Shown here in pieces: positions 4,725 through 22,094 of a stretch of DNA of 24,000 nt. The translations under genes were made by a program, and so were the position numbers. Numbering within the stretch: the stretch's first letter is position 1; every line of letters starts with the position of its first letter. The notes under the pieces are model-generated. The model made no database searches and was not told the origin of the DNA. It saw only the letters and a list, made by a program, of their open reading frames with translations. Source of the DNA: Minisyncoccia bacterium (lineage in GTDB: Bacteria; Patescibacteriota; Minisyncoccia; Phycocordibacterales; UBA6065); the NCBI GenBank assembly GCA_044233485.1, contig JBIIJY010000005.1:26815-50814 (forward strand), read 5' to 3'.

Positions 4725-7109
4725 ATGAAACAGACACAACGACTCGTACTCCTTGATGCCCACGCCATCCTCCATCGCGCCTATCACGCCCTCCCTGATT
4801 TTGCGACCTCACAAGGTGTTCCTACGGGTGCTTTGTATGGTTTTTCTACTATGGTGATGCATATTGTCAGTCAATTTAAACCCGACTATATTGTGGGGTG
4901 CTTTGATCTTCCTAAACCCACTTATCGCCATGTTGCCTATGAAGCCTACAAGACTGGTCGAGTGAAAACCGATGATGCGCTCGTCAGTCAACTTAAAAAA
5001 GCACAGGAGCTCTGCGTGAATCTTGGTATCCCGGTGTACTCCCTTGAAGGTTTTGAGGCTGACGACATGCTCGGAACCATTGTTCATACTCTCAAGGATA
5101 GTTTTGATATCGAGATACTTATTGCCTCGGGTGATATGGACACGCTTCAACTTGTTACTGATGACAAAGTGCGAGTGTTTACCTTAAAAAAAGGAATACA
5201 CGATACGATTATTTACAATGAAGACAAAGTAATTGAGCGATTTGGGTTCACTCCAAAACAAATTCCAGATTACAAAGGCCTTCGTGGCGATACTTCCGAT
5301 AATATAATTGGTATTAAAGGGATCGGGGAAAAGACTGCCACCATACTCATCAAAGAGTTTGGTACGGTAGAAGGTATGTATCAGGCTCTAGAGCAAGGTG
5401 ATGAGCGTTTTAGAAAAGTTGGCCTCGCCCCACGAATGATTGAGCTTATTCGTTCAGGTAAAGAAGAGGCTCTGTTTAGTAAAATGCTCGCGACGATTCG
5501 TGTTGATGCGCCAATACAATTCTCATTACCATCAAAGACGTGGCGAGAGGGAATTAATGAAGAAAATATCATCCACCTTTTTGGAGAATATGAGTTCCGC
5601 TCACTCCCTAAGCGATTCAAGGAGCTGCTTGCGGAGCTTGATGGCACGCAGGTAGAAAAGACTGAAATACTCGAGAGTGCAGAAGTGGTTGATCCAGCGC
5701 TTCTTCGCGAGACATTGCTTGCATTGTGGGTAGTAGACTCAAACTATACAAACCCAACAATTGAAGATGTATATACATTTGCTCAAACTCGTTCATTTGA
5801 AAAAGCTCGACAGATAATTACAACCGAACTCACTGCTCGTCAGGGTGTGTATGTATTTGAAGCAATTGAAAAGCCGCTGATTCCCGTGATCGACCAGATG
5901 CGCACCTGGGGTATAGCTATTGATTTGCCGCACCTGGCAAGTCTCAAACAAGAATATCGAGCAGCGGCTCTCGAGCTCGAGAAACAAATACATGCGTATG
6001 CGGGCACAGAGTTTAATATTGCTTCTCCAAAACAGCTGGCCGAAGTGCTATTCAACTCTCTTGGACTAAAAGGTAAAAATCAAAAAAAGACTTCGACGGG
6101 ACAGTTGTCGACCAAAGAGTCAGAGCTTGAAAAGTTGAAAGATGCACATCCGATCATCCCTTGTATTCTTTCGTATCGTGAACTGACTAAACTTCTTTCA
6201 ACCTATATCGAAGTAATACCAACGCTCACTGATACAGCAGGGCGCCTGCACAGTACACTCCTTCAAATGGGAACGACAACTGGCCGAATGGCTTCAGAGG
6301 ATCCAAACATTCAAAACATTCCGATCAAGAGTGCGCTAGGAAGGAGAATTCGGAGTGCGTTCGTCGCTGAGCCGGGTTGGGTGCTCGTGTCGTGTGACTA
6401 CTCACAAATCGAGCTCCGCTGTGCCGCTATCCTTTCAGGTGATGAGCGACTGATGGAGATTTTTAAAAACAATGAAGATATTCACCGCTCTGTTGCATCA
6501 CGGGTCTTTCATGTCTCACCAAGTGAAGTGACTCCAGAGATGCGTCGTAAGGCAAAGGTAATTAACTTTGGAATTCTCTATGGAATGGGAGCAAACGCCC
6601 TCAAAGCGAATCTTGAAGAGGGTGGTGATGTGGTAAGTCGGGCTGATGCACAAACCTATCTCGACGAATACTTTAAAGAATTCAGTGGGGTCGCTGCCTA
6701 TATCGAAGAGACAATTCGCCTTGCCACTGCCAAAGGCTACACTGAAACATTGTTTGGCCGTCGACGGTATTTTGAAAATATTAAGTCACGCATTCCATAC
6801 ATCAAAGCTCAAGCAGAACGTATGGCAATGAATGCCCCGATTCAAGGAACCAATGCCGATATTACCAAACTCGCCATGCAGGCTCTCTGGGGTGGGGTGC
6901 TCAAACAAGGTGCTCGAAGTGATGTTCGTATGCTCCTTCAAATTCATGATGAACTACTCTTTGAAATAAAAGAAGAAGTTTTTGAAACAATTATCCCTGA
7001 GCTATTACGAGTGATGGAGTCGGTCGTTCCGGCAGAGAAGAGAAAAGGGGTACCAATACGAGCCGAGGCAAAGTTTGGAAAGAATTGGGGAGAAATGAAG
7101 TCGGTTTAA
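4725..7109 (+). CDS. polA: DNA polymerase I
   Basis: 794 aa. N-terminal 5'-3' exonuclease/FEN domain (LLDAHAILHRAYHA; GIKGIGEKTA HhH). Family A polymerase motifs A (DYSQIELR), B (RRKAKVINFGILYG) and C (QIHDEL). Confidence 0.95.
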   Translation: MKQTQRLVLLDAHAILHRAYHALPDFATSQGVPTGALYGFSTMVMHIVSQFKPDYIVGCFDLPKPTYRHVAYEAYKTGRVKTDDALVSQLKKAQELCVNLGIPVYSLEGFEADDMLGTIVHTLKDSFDIEILIASGDMDTLQLVTDDKVRVFTLKKGIHDTIIYNEDKVIERFGFTPKQIPDYKGLRGDTSDNIIGIKGIGEKTATILIKEFGTVEGMYQALEQGDERFRKVGLAPRMIELIRSGKEEALFSKMLATIRVDAPIQFSLPSKTWREGINEENIIHLFGEYEFRSLPKRFKELLAELDGTQVEKTEILESAEVVDPALLRETLLALWVVDSNYTNPTIEDVYTFAQTRSFEKARQIITTELTARQGVYVFEAIEKPLIPVIDQMRTWGIAIDLPHLASLKQEYRAAALELEKQIHAYAGTEFNIASPKQLAEVLFNSLGLKGKNQKKTSTGQLSTKESELEKLKDAHPIIPCILSYRELTKLLSTYIEVIPTLTDTAGRLHSTLLQMGTTTGRMASEDPNIQNIPIKSALGRRIRSAFVAEPGWVLVSCDYSQIELRCAAILSGDERLMEIFKNNEDIHRSVASRVFHVSPSEVTPEMRRKAKVINFGILYGMGANALKANLEEGGDVVSRADAQTYLDEYFKEFSGVAAYIEETIRLATAKGYTETLFGRRRYFENIKSRIPYIKAQAERMAMNAPIQGTNADITKLAMQALWGGVLKQGARSDVRMLLQIHDELLFEIKEEVFETIIPELLRVMESVVPAEKRKGVPIRAEAKFGKNWGEMKSV

Positions 7110-7537
7110 AGCTCGAGTTTGTTGATTGTGTATGAATCGAGAAGCCAAATTTTTCTATCGGTCACCGAATTTACAAAGCGCATAATGACTGTGGCTTTCG
7201 CAAAATCAAATTCAATTTTTTCAGTAATCACAATCGGTTCATATTCCTGGGCAAATATATTTTTCAGTGTAAAAACTTTTGGATAGCCGTTGGTGGTAAC
7301 TGCGCTGTATTGGGCTTTAAGTCCACTTAGATAGGCACCATTGTCATCTGTAATAAAACTACCGAATTCTGCTGTGGCGATCTGGTCGAAGGCGTCAGTA
7401 TCGTAGGTGTTGATGAGGACTCGTGCTTTCGTGTCGTAAAAATCAGCAACGTGAATGAGTTGTATTCCACGAAGCATGAGTTGGTAAAATCCGAACACAA
7501 CTCCGAGAATGATGAGTATTGCAATAAGTGGTTTCAT
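7106..7537 (-). CDS. Hypothetical membrane-anchored protein
   Basis: 143 aa. Single N-terminal TM helix (PLIAILIILGVVFGFYQL). No recognisable domain. Its stop overlaps the polA stop (convergent genes). Confidence 0.6.
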   Translation of the reverse strand: MKPLIAILIILGVVFGFYQLMLRGIQLIHVADFYDTKARVLINTYDTDAFDQIATAEFGSFITDDNGAYLSGLKAQYSAVTTNGYPKVFTLKNIFAQEYEPIVITEKIEFDFAKATVIMRFVNSVTDRKIWLLDSYTINKLEL

Positions 7538-8249: not shown

Positions 8250-8272
8250 TTTTGTCTGTATCGTGTATATAT

Positions 8273-8345
8273 GCGCCCGTAGCTCAGTCGGTAGAGCATC
8301 TCCCTTTTAAGGAGTGGGTCGTTGGTTCGATTCCAACCGGGCGCA
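8273..8345 (+). tRNA. tRNA-Lys (anticodon UUU)
   Basis: Cloverleaf read by eye. Acceptor GCGCCCG/CGGGCGC, D arm GCTC-AGTCGGTA-GAGC, anticodon loop CUUUUAA, T arm GTTGG-TTCGATT-CCAAC, discriminator A. CCA is not encoded. Confidence 0.9.
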
Positions 8346-8371
8346 CAAAACGACGTTGAGGCGTAACGTAG

Positions 8372-9139
8372 TTAACGTGTCTCACTCCAGATATACTCGA
8401 ACATAATTCTAAATGTCTCAGTGATATATTTACTCTCGATAACAACAGTTAGGTAGCTTTCTTTGAAATTAGTAATAGCGACCTTATCCCCGTAAATTAC
8501 TATTTGTGCAGGAATTTTCAAACGGTCAGCTGGAACTTTTTTTCGAGTAATTAAATATTGAGTGTCTTCCTCAATCGGGGTGGCAATTATCTGACCATCA
8601 GTGTGGGGTGTAATTGCTTTCGTGTGAATATTCTTTTCAATCTGTTTATCGATCTGTTCTTTAATTAAATGAAGAACTTCTTGACGCCCTTCATGTATGG
8701 GTGAACTGATTACAAGTATGTTTTGATTCGTTTCGAGGATGTCATTATGAGTATATTTAATACCCTCGATTCCTTCATAAAACTGCACATTAGGTTTTCC
8801 ATTCAAGGAGTTAAACTCAGAAGAAAGCTTTCCAAGTATGTTGCCAAACTCAGAAAAAGCTCGGGATACGTGCTGTTTTTTCGTTTCAAGAAGCTCTTGT
8901 ATGCCTTTTGGATGCTTAGGGAAGAAGAGTGATACCTTACCAATATCATCTCGTTTTTCGACAAGGTTTAATTCAATGAGCTGCTCAAGTACTTTGTAGA
9001 CTAATGGCCTACCAAGATTGGTTTTAAGAGAAATAATCTTTGCCGGCGATAGGCCGTTTTTCAAAAGGTAAGTATAAATCAGCGCTTGTTCTTGACTTAA
9101 TCCGCACTCAGTAAGGATTGTTTCATTTATATTTGTCAT
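8372..9139 (-). CDS. TrmB-family transcriptional regulator
   Basis: The N-terminal winged helix LSQEQALIYTYLLKNGLSPAKIISLKTNLGRPLVYKVLEQLIELNLVEK is TrmB-type. I set the start to ATG 9139 (MTNINE...) because a TATAAT -10 box (9157-9152, minus strand) lies inside the longer ORF-track version. Confidence 0.75.
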   Translation of the reverse strand: MTNINETILTECGLSQEQALIYTYLLKNGLSPAKIISLKTNLGRPLVYKVLEQLIELNLVEKRDDIGKVSLFFPKHPKGIQELLETKKQHVSRAFSEFGNILGKLSSEFNSLNGKPNVQFYEGIEGIKYTHNDILETNQNILVISSPIHEGRQEVLHLIKEQIDKQIEKNIHTKAITPHTDGQIIATPIEEDTQYLITRKKVPADRLKIPAQIVIYGDKVAITNFKESYLTVVIESKYITETFRIMFEYIWSETR

Positions 9140-9151
9140 AAGTATGTGACA

Positions 9152-9179
9152 ATTATACACTTATAAATACAGTATGCAA
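9152..9179 (-). promoter_or_regulatory. Promoter of the TrmB-family gene (short leader)
   Basis: On the minus strand: TTGCAT (9179-9174), 16-nt spacer, TATAAT (9157-9152). The ATG at 9139 is 12 nt downstream of the -10 box. Confidence 0.5.
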
Positions 9180-9231
9180 GTTAATTGTGTTATATAGCAA
9201 TGAAACTATAGAGATTCTAAGGTAGATTGTA

Positions 9232-9259
9232 TTGACAAATCTATTCATTATGCTATGAT
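9232..9259 (+). promoter_or_regulatory. Promoter of the hammerhead-punctuated operon
   Basis: TTGACA (9232-9237), 16-nt spacer, TGcTATGAT (TATGAT at 9254-9259). Divergent from the TrmB-family gene promoter about 50 nt away. Confidence 0.6.
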
Positions 9260-9325
9260 TATATAAGAACAAGGGAAAAGGAAGCACTTACGCTTTACTA
9301 CCTGAGTATAGTTGACATTTCAGTC

Positions 9326-9667
9326 ATGAAAACCACTACATATTTCGGCTTTGGCATCGCCCCCTCAATGTTCCCGGACGGGAACATCACCAAAACTACC
9401 CTTTCGCCTGAAGAGGCGAAAGCGGTGGTCGAGGCAGGGGTGATCCCTTGCCTCAACCCGAGCCATAAGGCGTCGATAGACGCCTTGGGGAGCCGGTTCG
9501 GCATCACAGTGCCAATTCCCGAGCGCGCGCCGACGGTGGCATTGGTGCCAGGCGATCGTCTGCTGGTCATGGGCATCTCGGGACTCCCTCGTTTGGAGGG
9601 TCGCCACGAGTATTCCAGTGAGGAGGTTGCCAAGGCCACCTTTACCTTCTCACTCTGGGCGGTTTAA
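9326..9667 (+). CDS. DUF1874 / AcrIII-1-like protein (putative cyclic tetra-adenylate ring nuclease family)
   Basis: 113 aa. Recognised from my memory of SIRV1 gp29 / STIV B116. It shares their length, an N-terminal hydrophobic FGFGIAPSMF segment, a His at residue 47 (NPSHKASIDAL versus the family's GHDSTI context), GDRLLVMGISG, an RLEG motif at residues 89-92 and a C-terminal FTFSLW strand. One hand-counted 60-nt line (9481-9540) is 43/60 GC, against about 18-19/60 in typical host lines. Confidence 0.55.
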   Translation: MKTTTYFGFGIAPSMFPDGNITKTTLSPEEAKAVVEAGVIPCLNPSHKASIDALGSRFGITVPIPERAPTVALVPGDRLLVMGISGLPRLEGRHEYSSEEVAKATFTFSLWAV

Positions 9668-9824
9668 GGAGAAGGGGGTGAGGAAGGTTGTAAGTGAACC
9701 TAAAAAACTTCACATCGGCCACGATTGTTATGGCGTCATCATCGACGAGACAGATGCGTAATTCTTTGGGGAAGCTCCAGAGCGCTTGGTAAGCGGAAAC
9801 TACTGGGATGATGCAAATTATCCC

Positions 9825-9874
9825 CTGTTCTCGGAATGTAATTCCGACTGATGAGTCCAAAAGGACGAAAACAG
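9825..9874 (+). ncRNA. Hammerhead ribozyme, type III (copy 1)
   Basis: Stem III CUGUU (9825-9829) pairs with AACAG (9870-9874). C17 is at 9830 (UUC site). Stem I is UCGGAAU-GUA-AUUCCGA (9831-9847). Core CUGAUGA (9848-9854), stem II GUCC-AAAA-GGAC (9855-9866), GAAA (9867-9870). All invariant core nucleotides are present. Confidence 0.9.
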
Positions 9875-9927
9875 AAAGTTTTTGAAGGAGTAAATTAACA
9901 ATCAAAAAAATAGAAAGGAGGTGAAAA

Positions 9928-10131
9928 ATGAGGAATAAATTCCTTAGTCTGACTAAGTGGTTGGCAGTCATGATCATCGTCAATAGCTTAATCGCTTTGG
10001 TGGTCGTCATGAATGCTGACACCAACAGTCAGTCGTTCCAGAAGTTTTGGGAGAGCCGTAACCTGATTCTGATCGCAAATCTTTTGCTGATCGTGGCTTG
10101 TGGTGCTTCCGCCCGACTCTCGAGGAACTGA
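9928..10131 (+). CDS. Small two-TM membrane protein (hypothetical)
   Basis: 67 aa. Strong SD AAGGAGGTG (9915-9923), with 4 nt between it and the ATG. Two predicted TM helices (WLAVMIIVNSLIALVVVM; LILIANLLLIVACGASA) and a basic C-terminus RLSRN. It lies between hammerheads 1 and 2. Confidence 0.65.
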   Translation: MRNKFLSLTKWLAVMIIVNSLIALVVVMNADTNSQSFQKFWESRNLILIANLLLIVACGASARLSRN

Positions 10132-10265
10132 CTGGTAGGAAAGTCTACCTAAAGGATCACCCAGGGTTTGCTAGTAAAGAACTCTAACCTTTAATTCAAA
10201 AGGGTGTGAATGTCACCGTGTATACATGGTGAGTTGGCGTGCAACGCCACGGATCAAAAGATTCG

Positions 10266-10317
10266 TTCTGTCTCGGAATGTAATTCCGACTGATGAGTCC
10301 AAAAGGACGAAACAGAA
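10266..10317 (+). ncRNA. Hammerhead ribozyme, type III (copy 2)
   Basis: Stem III UUCUGU (10266-10271) pairs with ACAGAA (10312-10317). C17 is at 10272 (GUC site). Stem I UCGGAAU-GUA-AUUCCGA, CUGAUGA, GUCC-AAAA-GGAC and GAAA follow. The 42-nt core is identical to copy 1. Confidence 0.92.
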
Positions 10318-10516
10318 GGTTCAAATTTAATGTGATCAGTTTCAGCTAGCATGAAACTGGTAAAGGATCTATCTCGCAGCGTGACGGCGAACCTGTCAGC
10401 GTAAGAGGTGGCTTAGATCCAGCTTAAGAATGACCTATTCTTGAGCACTTTATTGAGCCTGCCACGTTGTGTGGTTGGTTCATAGAGTTCTTGAACAACT
10501 AATTGAAAGGAGTGGT

Positions 10517-10756
10517 ATGTTGATCTTAAACATCGACCGAGTCAAACAGCTTGTTGAGGGAGACCAAAAGGATGGGGAGATCCCCATCATGGCTCTCCGT
10601 CGGAGGCTCATCGAGGGTAAGGTGACAAAGGCAGACCTTTTCAAGACGAGGTGCTTCGGCACCAGGTCTTGGAGAAGTCTGCTCGAGCTACTCGATCTCG
10701 AAGAGGGTCAAGTCATTGCCTCTCGTCCGGAGGGTGTGGTGGCGGCTGCGGCTTAG
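10517..10756 (+). CDS. Small hypothetical protein (possible helix-hairpin-helix-like nucleic-acid binder)
   Basis: 79 aa counted from ATG 10517, which follows the SD GAAAGGAG (10506-10513). The ORF-track GTG start at 10469 has no SD. The segment FGTRSWRSLLELLDLEEG loosely resembles an HhH motif. GC-rich. It lies between hammerheads 2 and 3. Confidence 0.55.
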   Translation: MLILNIDRVKQLVEGDQKDGEIPIMALRRRLIEGKVTKADLFKTRCFGTRSWRSLLELLDLEEGQVIASRPEGVVAAAA

Positions 10757-10799: not shown

Positions 10800-10823
10800 T
10801 AGTATTAGAGTACTCTAATACTA
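10800..10823. repeat. 24-bp perfect palindrome abutting hammerhead 3
   Basis: TAGTATTAGAGTACTCTAATACTA equals its own reverse complement. It ends 1 nt before stem III of hammerhead 3. Confidence 0.9.
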
Positions 10824-10874
10824 GTTGTTTTGGAATGTGTGTTCCGACTGATGAGTCCAAAAGGACGAAACAAC
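10824..10874 (+). ncRNA. Hammerhead ribozyme, type III (copy 3, divergent stems)
   Basis: Stem III GUUGU (10824-10828) pairs with ACAAC (10870-10874). U17 is at 10829 (GUU site). Stem I is UUGGAAU-GUGU-GUUCCGA (two G-U pairs), and the core CUGAUGA-GUCC-AAAA-GGAC-GAAA is identical to the other copies. It sits 57 nt upstream of the methyltransferase ATG. Confidence 0.85.
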
Positions 10875-10930
10875 AATCATCTACTTGCTTTTTATATAAT
10901 GAAGCGTCTATAGTAACTTCCGTCGACGCA

Positions 10931-11401
10931 ATGAAAAAATTTCTTATTCTCTATAATCTGCGCAGTGTATATAATGTGGGGGCGATTTTTCGTACTGCTG
11001 ATGCTGTTGGTATTGATTGTGTCTATTTGATCGGTACGACGCCGACACCACTCGATCGTTTTGGTAGTCCGCGAAGTGATTTTGCTAAATGCGCGCTCGG
11101 TTCAGAAAAAACTCTAGCCTGGGAATATCGAAAAACACTTGTACCACTTATTAAAAAACTACAAAAAGAAGGAGTTCAGATAATTGCTCTTGAGCAAGAT
11201 GCTCAGGCGATAGATTACAAAAAATATGAACCTATAGGTGATTGTGCTGTGATCTGTGGAGAAGAGGTGTATGGTATTCCTCTAAAAATACGTGCACTGG
11301 CAGATCAAACTCTCGAGATTCCAATGAAGGGGACGAAGGAGTCGCTTAATGTGTCTGTGGCGACAGGAATACTACTCTATGGACTATTCGACCGAGATTA
11401 A
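10931..11401 (+). CDS. SpoU/TrmH-family RNA 2'-O-methyltransferase
   Basis: 156 aa from ATG 10931 (MKKFLILYNL...). SPOUT motifs NVGAIFRTADAVG, IALEQD, VICGEEVYGIP and LEIPMKGTKESLNVSVATGILLY. The ORF-track extension from 10835 overlaps hammerhead 3 and I rejected it. Confidence 0.85.
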   Translation: MKKFLILYNLRSVYNVGAIFRTADAVGIDCVYLIGTTPTPLDRFGSPRSDFAKCALGSEKTLAWEYRKTLVPLIKKLQKEGVQIIALEQDAQAIDYKKYEPIGDCAVICGEEVYGIPLKIRALADQTLEIPMKGTKESLNVSVATGILLYGLFDRD

Positions 11402-14195: not shown

Positions 14196-14272
14196 ATTTG
14201 CTAAAGTACTTTTTATTCCACTCGTCGTTCAATGGATAGGACGCAAGTTTGCGGAACTTGCAATAGAAGTTC

Positions 14273-14294
14273 GATTCTTCTCGAGTGGACAAGT
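14273..14294 (+). repeat. Left copy of a 22-bp perfect direct repeat flanking the radical SAM cassette
   Basis: GATTCTTCTCGAGTGGACAAGT, identical to 16394-16415. The sequence flanking the two copies is unrelated. Confidence 0.9.
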
Positions 14295-21969: not shown

Positions 21970-22010
21970 AAAATCAAAATCCACCGGTTACGGTGGATTA
22001 GATTTGGCGG
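21970..22010 (-). repeat. Terminator-like hairpin repeat, copy B (tRNA-Ser terminator)
   Basis: AAAATCAAAATCCACCgGTTACGGTGGATTAGATTTgGCGG. It overlaps the last nucleotides (CCGCCA) of tRNA-Ser and acts as its intrinsic terminator on the minus strand. Confidence 0.8.
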
Positions 22011-22094
22011 AGGAGGTGAGATTCGAACTCACGACCCAGTTGCCCGGGTGACGGTTTTCAAGACCGTTGCTTTAGACCACTCAGCCACTCCTCC
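22005..22094 (-). tRNA. tRNA-Ser (anticodon UGA), CCA encoded
   Basis: Minus-strand read: acceptor GGAGGAG/CUCCUCC, anticodon stem ACGGU/ACCGU with loop CUUGAAA, long variable arm CACCCGGGCAACUGGGUC, T arm GUGAG-UUCGAAU-CUCAC, then G-CCA. Confidence 0.9.

Follow-up and report, generated by a model that had tools for sequence, protein, structure and literature searches.

The window analysed here is a stretch of 24,000 nucleotides (nt) from a Minisyncoccia bacterium (GenBank assembly GCA_044233485.1, contig JBIIJY010000005.1, positions 26,815 to 50,814). It harbors an open reading frame (ORF) on the + strand at 9326..9667, which starts with ATG and encodes a protein of 113 amino acids (aa) with the fold of the DUF1874 family. 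The locus comprises a divergent regulator gene, a promoter, this DUF1874-like gene, two small cassette ORFs, three hammerhead ribozymes with further structured modules between the ORFs, and an RNA methyltransferase gene. An earlier note, made from the sequence alone, had named the ORF as the first gene of a ribozyme operon, and it is indeed the promoter-proximal gene of a unit with three hammerheads. The motifs that this note had quoted are all found at the residues it gave, namely N44-P-S-H47-K-A-S-I-D-A-L54, G76-DRLLVMGIS-G86, R89-L-E-G92 and F106-TFSLW111.

The ORF is a real gene, because the protein has homologues (n=338), the substitutions are biased to the third codon position, and the structure model is confident. 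Among 37 orthologues, the substitutions at codon positions 1/2/3 were 0.29/0.28/0.54. The AlphaFold2 monomer model of the window protein reached a predicted local distance difference test (pLDDT) score of 90.2 and a predicted template modelling (TM) score of 0.82. An antisense ORF of equal length at 9298-9639 is a side product of G+C richness. The absence of a Shine–Dalgarno (SD) sequence was also seen as described before, as no SD-like 4-5-mer lies within 22 nt 5' of the ATG.

The homology of the 113-aa protein to DUF1874 and its DUF1874 fold are established by profile and structure comparison. The suggested resemblance to DUF1874/AcrIII-1 stood in these comparisons and failed for the single sequence, since hmmscan of the window protein gave no match to Pfam DUF1874 even at E<=10. 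The lone signal of the single sequence was a weak match to the PADLOC Csx16 model (PDLC01147) with an E-value of 4.2e-5 over residues 25-107. Among the close homologues, PF08960 matches 22 of 31, weakly, with a best E of 8.8e-6, and the Csx16 hidden Markov model (HMM) matches 15 of the 31; the precomputed PF08960 annotation is listed for roughly half of the homologues. When the profile of the 31 homologues was searched against the PDB by hmmsearch, it matched AFV3-109 (2J6B) along its whole length with E 3.5e-4 (residues 18-113). The hhalign comparison of the same profile with five canonical DUF1874 proteins (SIRV1 gp29, STIV B116, THSA-485A DUF1874, AFV3-109 and phage Fnu1 gp081) gave a probability of 94.9% and an E-value of 4.5e-8. 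The structural check for the AcrIII-1 fold pointed in the same direction. The top 17 PDB matches of the model by Foldseek are all DUF1874 structures, including 6SCF, 2J85, 2J6B, 2X4I and 8Y7F/G (AcrIII-1, B116, AFV3-109, ORF114 and Csx1-Crn2). Among them is AcrIII-1 6SCF (E 1.9e-6, TM 0.76), and TM values were 0.66-0.77 for matches 1-16 and 0.54 for the 17th, while the later matches are noise. Thus, the homology call of the earlier note is correct and of unusual residue-level precision, and the protein takes a marginal place in the Pfam family, intermediate between DUF1874 and Csx16.

It has been reported that H47 of AcrIII-1 is the general acid, and that the H47A change cuts the activity more than 2500-fold; the imidazole is held by E88, and a mobile loop is locked by R85 (bioRxiv 10.1101/778746, PMC11317161). 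The claim of an equivalent His47 and RLEG motif in the window protein is borne out by hhalign and MAFFT alignments, in which H47, R89, E91 and G92 align with AcrIII-1 H47, R85, E88 and G89. These four residues are invariant across the 31 close homologues, and the loop GLPRLE.RHEY is wholly invariant in the same sequences, which come from several classes of the candidate phyla radiation (CPR). Further residues nearby are invariant as well (F7, G10, M15, F16, C42, N44, P45, P65, P69, L87, P88, R93, H94, E95 and Y96), and the segments that carry them correspond by alignment to ligand-contacting segments of AcrIII-1. The contacts of AcrIII-1 to cyclic tetra-adenylate (cA4) include N8, S11, N13, S49, T50, R66 and Q81 (bioRxiv 10.1101/778746, PMC11317161). 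Out of ten side-chain contacts, three are identical in the window protein (AcrIII-1 H47, R85 and E88) and two are conservative (T50 to S50 and N13 to S14). Among the sampled distant members of the family, the position of the loop Glu wanders.

Downstream of the gene, the operon carries intergenic elements with the canonical hammerhead core CUGAUGA...GAAA, three stems and a NUH cleavage site, the cleavage itself being predicted. Hammerhead 1 (9825..9874 or 9823-9876, +), which has a type III topology and an intact CUGAUGA...GAAA core, scored 38.5 bits against RF00008 (E 3.4e-6), and its cleavage is predicted after C9830 as read from the sequence. Hammerhead 2 (10265..10318, +) scored 49.7 bits, with predicted cleavage after C10272, and hammerhead 3 (10822..10876, +) scored 38.8 bits (E 2.8e-6), with predicted cleavage after U10829. 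The gathering score of RF00008 is 48.5; hammerhead 2 is above it, and hammerheads 1 and 3 are below. Across 17 homologous units, covariation is seen in both stem I and stem II. Hammerhead cores were found in 9 of the 36 genome loci that carry the gene, and all 17 of these cores lie on the strand of the gene, within ~2.5 kb. They are downstream of the gene in seven loci and upstream in L017 and L036, and therefore the gene is an internal cassette in the latter two. Hammerheads with long covarying stem II insertions (25-45 nt) were observed beside minimal versions with a GAAA loop (L019 at 4536 and 5055, L056, L075 and L074).

Hammerhead 1 is joined by hairpin P3 to a conserved element A. Element A (9756..9800, +) consists of GCGUAAUU, helix P1 (9764-9782, with the invariant GGGGAAGCUCC), helix P2 (9783-9795) and GAAAC, and P3 (9805..9824, +) is formed by GGGAUGAU and AUUAUCCC. 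Seven of the eight P3 pairs show compensatory changes over the 17 homologous units. In the whole A-P3-hammerhead unit, 97% of the alignment cells pair and 20 of the 30 pairs have compensatory changes; this level of covariation was reached by 0 of 500 shuffles, and slid controls collapse. The exact-pattern scan for element A found 36 copies at 34 metagenome loci (L054-L087), and the 11-mer GGGGAAGCUCC is invariant in every copy. A hammerhead core follows 80-104 nt downstream in 19 of the 36 copies. The DUF1874-like gene stands directly upstream in ~14 of the 36 metagenomic copies, as it does in the window, and the other copies follow different cassettes, such as membrane proteins and a family with the pattern CxVCKQTG...HKPCG. 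A covariance model of element A (R1) gave 71.6 bits at 9756..9800, the sole copy of the window, and it found no divergent copies in other clades, indicating that element A is specific to one clade. Element A and P3 together form a conserved domain of ~70 nt (9756-9824) on the 5' side of many hammerheads. The sequence CCUGACGAGCCGAAAC in element A was considered as a degenerate hammerhead core and rejected, as it is a covarying 3-4-bp hairpin (G..C swapped with C..G) and the copy in the window departs from CUGANGA. Sequestering of hammerhead stem III by the 5' flank of element A (GACAG), which the minimum-free-energy fold proposes, was likewise rejected, because the complementarity is missing in most homologous units.

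Two further modules lie between hammerhead 2 and the second cassette ORF. Element B (10319..10440, +) is a conserved intergenic module that nhmmer also detected at L001 6855-6986 (E 2e-16) and L032 5829-5955 (E 6.9e-14). Module C (10422..10487, +) is made of a hairpin, CACUUUAUUGAG, a variable hairpin and UUCAUAGAG, with the consensus CACUUUAUUGRG, hairpin, YCAUAGAG. It stands just 5' of the next ORF, ahead of a shared AGUUCUUU, which is the slot that hammerheads hold in other units. Eighteen copies were found by regular expression in related loci (L001, L015, L055, L056, L064, L065, L072, L073, L075, L076 and L079), and 16 were aligned and folded; 9 of the 17 pairs of the long helix show compensatory changes. 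Rfam searches at gathering and E-value thresholds gave no family for elements A and B, module C or any repeat of L001. Weinberg et al. described a 'DUF1874 RNA motif' that repeats in consecutive intergenic regions and that they left unexplained (2017, NAR 45:10811, PMC5737381), and module C is a candidate for a new processing element or ribozyme, possibly this published motif. Another orphan motif of the same 2017 survey, the DUF3800-IX RNA (RF02968), was observed at L019 6482-6550 (42.1 bits, gathering 36.8) in the cassette array downstream of the DUF1874-like gene.

The remaining features of the locus complete the array. The divergent gene at 8372..9139 on the - strand encodes a TrmB-family winged-helix regulator (255 aa as called; Pfam TrmB, E 1.1e-9), with a host-like G+C content at third codon positions (GC3) of 0.34. 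In 11 of the 36 genome loci, as well as in L001 and the P0003 locus, the same divergent partner immediately precedes the DUF1874-like gene. As it is adjacent in only about one third of loci, TrmB was rejected as an obligatory partner. A sigma-70-like promoter at 9232..9259 (+) shows TTGACA, a 16-nt spacer and a TG-extended TATGAT, with 11 of 12 consensus matches, and its -10 context ctatgcTATGAT recurs 5' of the orthologue in L001 and L032. Cassette ORF 1 (9928..10131, +) encodes a hydrophobic, membrane-like protein of 67 aa with weak family matches only, preceded by the strong SD AAAGGAGGUG; its GC3 is 0.67 over a 53-aa call. Cassette ORF 2 (10517..10756, +) encodes 79 aa behind the SD GAAAGGAG and has a GC3 of 0.65; it gave no family match in scans that used a longer reading of 95 aa (10469-10753). 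The last + strand gene after hammerhead 3 encodes a SpoU/TrmH-type RNA methyltransferase (10932..11401; Pfam SpoU_methylase, E 1.1e-30), and its GC3 of 0.29 is again host-like. No strong terminator was found before 11401, and the single weak terminator-like site lies within module C. The cassette content varies between related loci.

Several observations were made on related arrays and on the surroundings. A recurrent cassette protein family of ~115-130 aa has the Zn-ribbon-like pattern CxVCKQTG...GA.W...VHKPCG and an Ala/Pro-rich tail. Its ORFs end 40-50 nt before element A (L055, L056, L074, L079, L081, L084 and L085), and a conserved flank particular to this family (ACUACGGAUGUCUCUAACUCCUGUAAUU) stands 5' of element A. 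In the orthologous array of L001, a repeat of ~120 nt occurs in two copies (7006-7126 and 8262-8383), the halves of which are 92% and 79% identical; each copy comes after module C and before an ORF start, as a repeated unit of the 5' untranslated region (UTR). Uhrbacteria-type loci (L021, L023, L033, L034 and L038) carry other conserved, G+C-rich, structured-looking 3' regions in the first ~200 nt after the gene, and different conserved 3' regions follow the gene in L017/L020/L036 and in L031/L037. No hammerhead core, element A or Rfam match was found in these 3' regions. The window has three tRNA genes, at 8273-8345 (+), 14218-14289 (+) and 22008-22094 (-), and the first of them directly adjoins the TrmB-like gene at its 3' end and so borders the array.

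The G+C content of the DUF1874-like gene is 58.8%, compared with ~45% for the window, and its GC3 is 0.70. The count of 43/60 that had been given for 9481-9540 is exact, and no 60-nt line of the window exceeds it (mean 27.05, sd 4.9). The level of 18-19/60 that had been taken as typical of the host is too low; the actual value is ~27/60, and the AT-rich divergent promoter gap at 9140-9325 (29.6% GC) alone matches the lower level. The foreign-looking composition itself is evident, since 9326-10756 forms a compositional island in which the two small cassette ORFs have a GC3 of 0.65-0.67. The gene exceeds the rest of its locus in G+C in 40 of 40 loci (means 61% vs 47%), and its GC3 in these loci is 0.59-0.97. 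The anomaly belongs to the whole gene family rather than to one insertion. At L043 the gene has 55% G+C vs 31%, with further examples at L050 and L032, and in several loci, such as L020 and L023, its GC3 reaches up to 0.97 with a remaining sequence of ~49-59% GC. The codon bias of highly expressed genes was rejected as the cause, as the ribosomal protein genes on the same contigs have a GC3 of 0.24-0.34 (~0.25-0.3 for those beside the DUF1874-like gene). Transfer, biased gene conversion and RNA-level selection are possible sources, and an anomaly found in 40/40 loci with a GC3 up to 0.97 merits an explanation by itself.

The family is divergent and spread through the tiny-genome bacteria of the CPR. 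There were 337 clusters at E<=1e-3 among 1.84 billion representative proteins, and 36 loci carry the gene in GTDB data with one genome per species. About 26 of these 36 records are labelled CPR/Patescibacteria (Taylor-, Lipton-, Uhr- and Magasanikbacteria, Paceibacterota, Nanosyncoccaceae and others), and the remaining records are labelled just 'bacterium', Gammaproteobacteria or Methylomirabilis. IMG/VR gave two matches among 2.9 million viral contigs, one of which sits on a 70-kb contig with neighbours without Pfam domains, and tblastn against GenBank phages gave one weak match, on an unannotated faecal contig. The statement that the window is free of CRISPR-Cas agreed with our result: no CRISPR, Cas or CARF gene was found among the Pfam-annotated genes that neighbour it on the source contig, or among the ORFs of 130 aa or more that were scanned against Pfam in 19-24 kb. 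No integrase or recombinase domain was found in any of the ten annotated neighbourhoods, and in several of them the gene is set among housekeeping genes. The earlier proposal of a mobile-element remnant does not fit these data, because the gene is no one-off but belongs to a conserved CPR-wide family that is almost absent from viral contigs. Rather than a relic, the DUF1874-like gene is typically the promoter-proximal, G+C-rich cassette in a type of operon that occurs in some CPR lineages.

Based on analogy with AcrIII-1, we tentatively favour the reading that the protein is a homodimeric, metal-independent, His47-dependent phosphodiesterase acting on a small cA4-type cyclic oligoadenylate (cOA), and that its gene is the first cassette of a ribozyme-processed operon. 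In the proposed mechanism, the ligand pocket would lie at the interface of the homodimer, and the mobile loop G86-LPRLEGRHEY-96 would shut over the ligand. The ribose 2'-OH would attack the phosphodiester, His47, held by Glu91, would protonate the leaving group, and the reaction, which is presumed to be metal-independent, would leave 2',3'-cyclic phosphate ends. The likeliest substrate would be a small cA4-type cyclic oligoadenylate, and a nucleotide alarm signal may be quenched in this way. At the RNA level, the three hammerheads are predicted to cut the primary transcript after 9830, 10272 and 10829 into single-gene mRNAs, and the mRNA of the DUF1874-like gene would end after cleavage in element A and hairpin P3.

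A number of observations weigh against a cA4-type ligand. Searched as a single sequence, the window protein matched nothing in Pfam, NCBIfam, PHROGs and PDB. Dissimilar residues stand at five of the ten positions whose side chains contact cA4 (N8 to F9, S11 to A12, S49 to A49, R66 to A68 and Q81 to G83), and several of these changes are fixed in the family: in the 31 homologues, F9 and A68 do not vary, and A12 and G83 hardly do. In Csx1-Crn2, the scissile phosphate is stabilised by the counterparts of N8 and R66, mutants of which are markedly less active (PMC11317161); both residues are replaced in the window protein. To judge from these alignments, the binding pocket looks conserved yet remodelled. 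Of 24 distant members sampled, ~6 carry Y, N or D in place of the catalytic His. No Cas10, CARF or SAVED gene was found in the window or in nine related neighbourhoods, and CRISPR-Cas is reported to be rarely encoded in CPR bacteria (PMC4742961, PMC6509639). Even canonical AcrIII-1 homologues may act otherwise in their native context (bioRxiv 10.1101/2023.01.10.523387). The anti-defence or signal-quenching module that the earlier note had suggested therefore stays an analogy, because of the Pfam miss, the replaced cA4 contacts, the lack of cOA-signalling genes in the ten neighbourhoods and the near-absence from viruses.

An unlikely but substantial alternative is that the same fold and chemistry have been redirected to an RNA feature of the array, such as element A, module C, or the 2',3'-cyclic-phosphate and 5'-OH ends left by the hammerheads; the role of the protein would be to process, protect, ligate or regulate cassette transcripts. 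The position of all 17 hammerhead cores in sense and near the gene, the frequent occurrence of element A right after the gene, and the hammerhead core that follows 19 of its 36 copies are consistent with this alternative. Hammerheads and DUF1874 enzymes share a transesterification chemistry (bioRxiv 10.1101/778746 for the enzyme), the new pocket residues vary little or not at all, a sign of a ligand that is conserved yet different, and the unexplained repeats of the 'DUF1874 RNA motif' in consecutive intergenic regions (PMC5737381) would also find a place in it. On the other hand, RNA binding is hypothetical, and element A also follows unrelated cassettes (the Zn-ribbon-like family and membrane proteins), which suggests a cassette boundary rather than a gene-specific partner. 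Moreover, about two thirds of the gene-bearing genome loci are without any module, and several lineages have the gene amid housekeeping genes, where neither a hammerhead core nor element A was detected.

A broader form of this idea, which we consider quite doubtful, makes the DUF1874-fold protein the partner of an RNA-level cassette system of CPR bacteria. Exchangeable G+C-rich cassettes would be bounded by hammerheads or by modules A and C, module C being a candidate self-cleaving or protein-cleaved RNA, and the ring-nuclease chemistry would act on those RNAs or on 2',3'-cyclic-phosphate ends and not on a CRISPR messenger.

It is improbable that the protein is a non-catalytic binder, that is, a small dimeric module that binds protein or nucleic acid and in which the conserved His is structural or vestigial. 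SIRV2 gp37 was reported to inhibit a host lysine methyltransferase, a CRISPR-independent protein-protein role (bioRxiv 10.1101/2023.01.10.523387), and several homologues of archaeal viruses are annotated as 'DNA binding protein' and were originally regarded as DNA-binding. The loss of the His in a quarter of the sampled distant members would also agree with a binder. However, H47, R89, E91 and the loop GLPRLE.RHEY are invariant in the 31 sequences from several CPR classes, a pattern that fits an active site.

It is very improbable that the protein is an accessory of an integron-like DNA cassette system, in which elements A and C would fold as single-stranded DNA, not as RNA, and serve as attC-like recombination sites. 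For the DUF1874 motif, such a role had been put forward by Weinberg et al. (PMC5737381), and the array has an integron-like layout, with a conserved gene in divergent orientation, a promoter, and structured repeats that separate variable cassettes; related loci differ in cassette content. On the contig of L062 and L066, halves of two copies of element A are joined. Compared with L026 5358-5539 and 6365-6495, the chimeric element at L062 3172-3353 (= L066) has the 5' half of the copy that follows the DUF1874-like gene and the 3' half of the next copy 1 kb downstream, with P1 mismatched at the join, and the DUF1874-like gene at L062 is shortened to 62 aa. Either recombination at the invariant 11-mer has removed a cassette here, or the junction is an artefact of chimeric assembly. 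Against an integron, no annotated neighbourhood has an integrase or recombinase. Furthermore, bona fide hammerheads, always in sense, fill the equivalent intergenic slot, which argues that the intergenic boundaries act as RNA.

The view that the ORF arose by chance inside a G+C-rich structured non-coding segment, for which the equally long antisense ORF of 113 codons and the absence of an SD could be cited, is already refuted by the 338 homologues that keep its length and motifs, the concentration of substitutions at codon position 3, and a pLDDT-90 model that fits solved structures.

In type III CRISPR signalling, ring nucleases are known either to switch the signal off or to act as saboteurs for viruses. 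A conserved and catalytically equipped relative has now been found spread through CPR/Patescibacteria, lineages that are largely without CRISPR-Cas; therefore, either cyclic-oligoadenylate signalling is more widespread than assumed, or the fold has acquired a new substrate. The arrays of hammerheads and modules that are linked to the gene bear on the purpose of self-cleaving ribozymes in bacteria and on the nature of the unexplained 'DUF1874 motif' arrays.

Compared with the bacterial and phage intergenic hammerheads (RF00008, clan CL00010), those of the window type share the canonical core, the three stems, the sense orientation between ORFs and the occurrence of several copies per operon. 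They differ in that they are often fused to an upstream conserved domain (element A and P3), and that they are interchangeable with the non-hammerhead module C at the same position. The 'DUF1874 RNA motif' (PMC5737381) was described as a multistem structure with a conserved internal loop in 5' UTRs, arranged as motif-ORF-motif-ORF without an integrase and named after DUF1874. Module C, or possibly element A, fits this motif, a likeness that is drawn from the published description only. Hammerheads in these arrays are unmentioned in that paper, which tentatively favoured an attC-like role as single-stranded DNA.

Csx16 gave a weak full-length HMM match to the window protein. Csx16 is itself a distant relative of the DUF1874 fold and a structural relative of AFV3-109, and it has been experimentally shown to be a cA4-specific ring nuclease (PMC12409355). 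It is defined by a type III CRISPR locus, whereas none was found around the window gene. With AcrIII-1 (SIRV1 gp29, STIV B116, AFV3-109) and Crn2, which make up PF08960, the window protein shares the length of ~110 aa, the fold (TM 0.76 to 6SCF), profile homology, the catalytic His47, and the loop Arg (R85 = R89) and Glu (E88 = E91). It differs from them in an identity of ~17-22% that leaves it below Pfam detection, in the replaced phosphate and adenine contacts N8, S11, S49, R66 and Q81, and in the extra LP loop insertion and the invariant RHEY (R93-H94-E95-Y96) of its family. AcrIII-1 resides on viruses or plasmids and Crn2 in type III CRISPR loci, whereas the window family is chromosomal in CPR bacteria, two viral-contig matches aside, lies outside viruses, plasmids and type III loci, and is tied to ribozyme arrays. 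Taken together, the 113-aa protein departs from AcrIII-1 in Pfam score, most ligand contacts and viral or CRISPR context but keeps the catalytic core, and it is best regarded as a novel, CPR-specific form of the DUF1874 fold that leads ribozyme-delimited cassette arrays.

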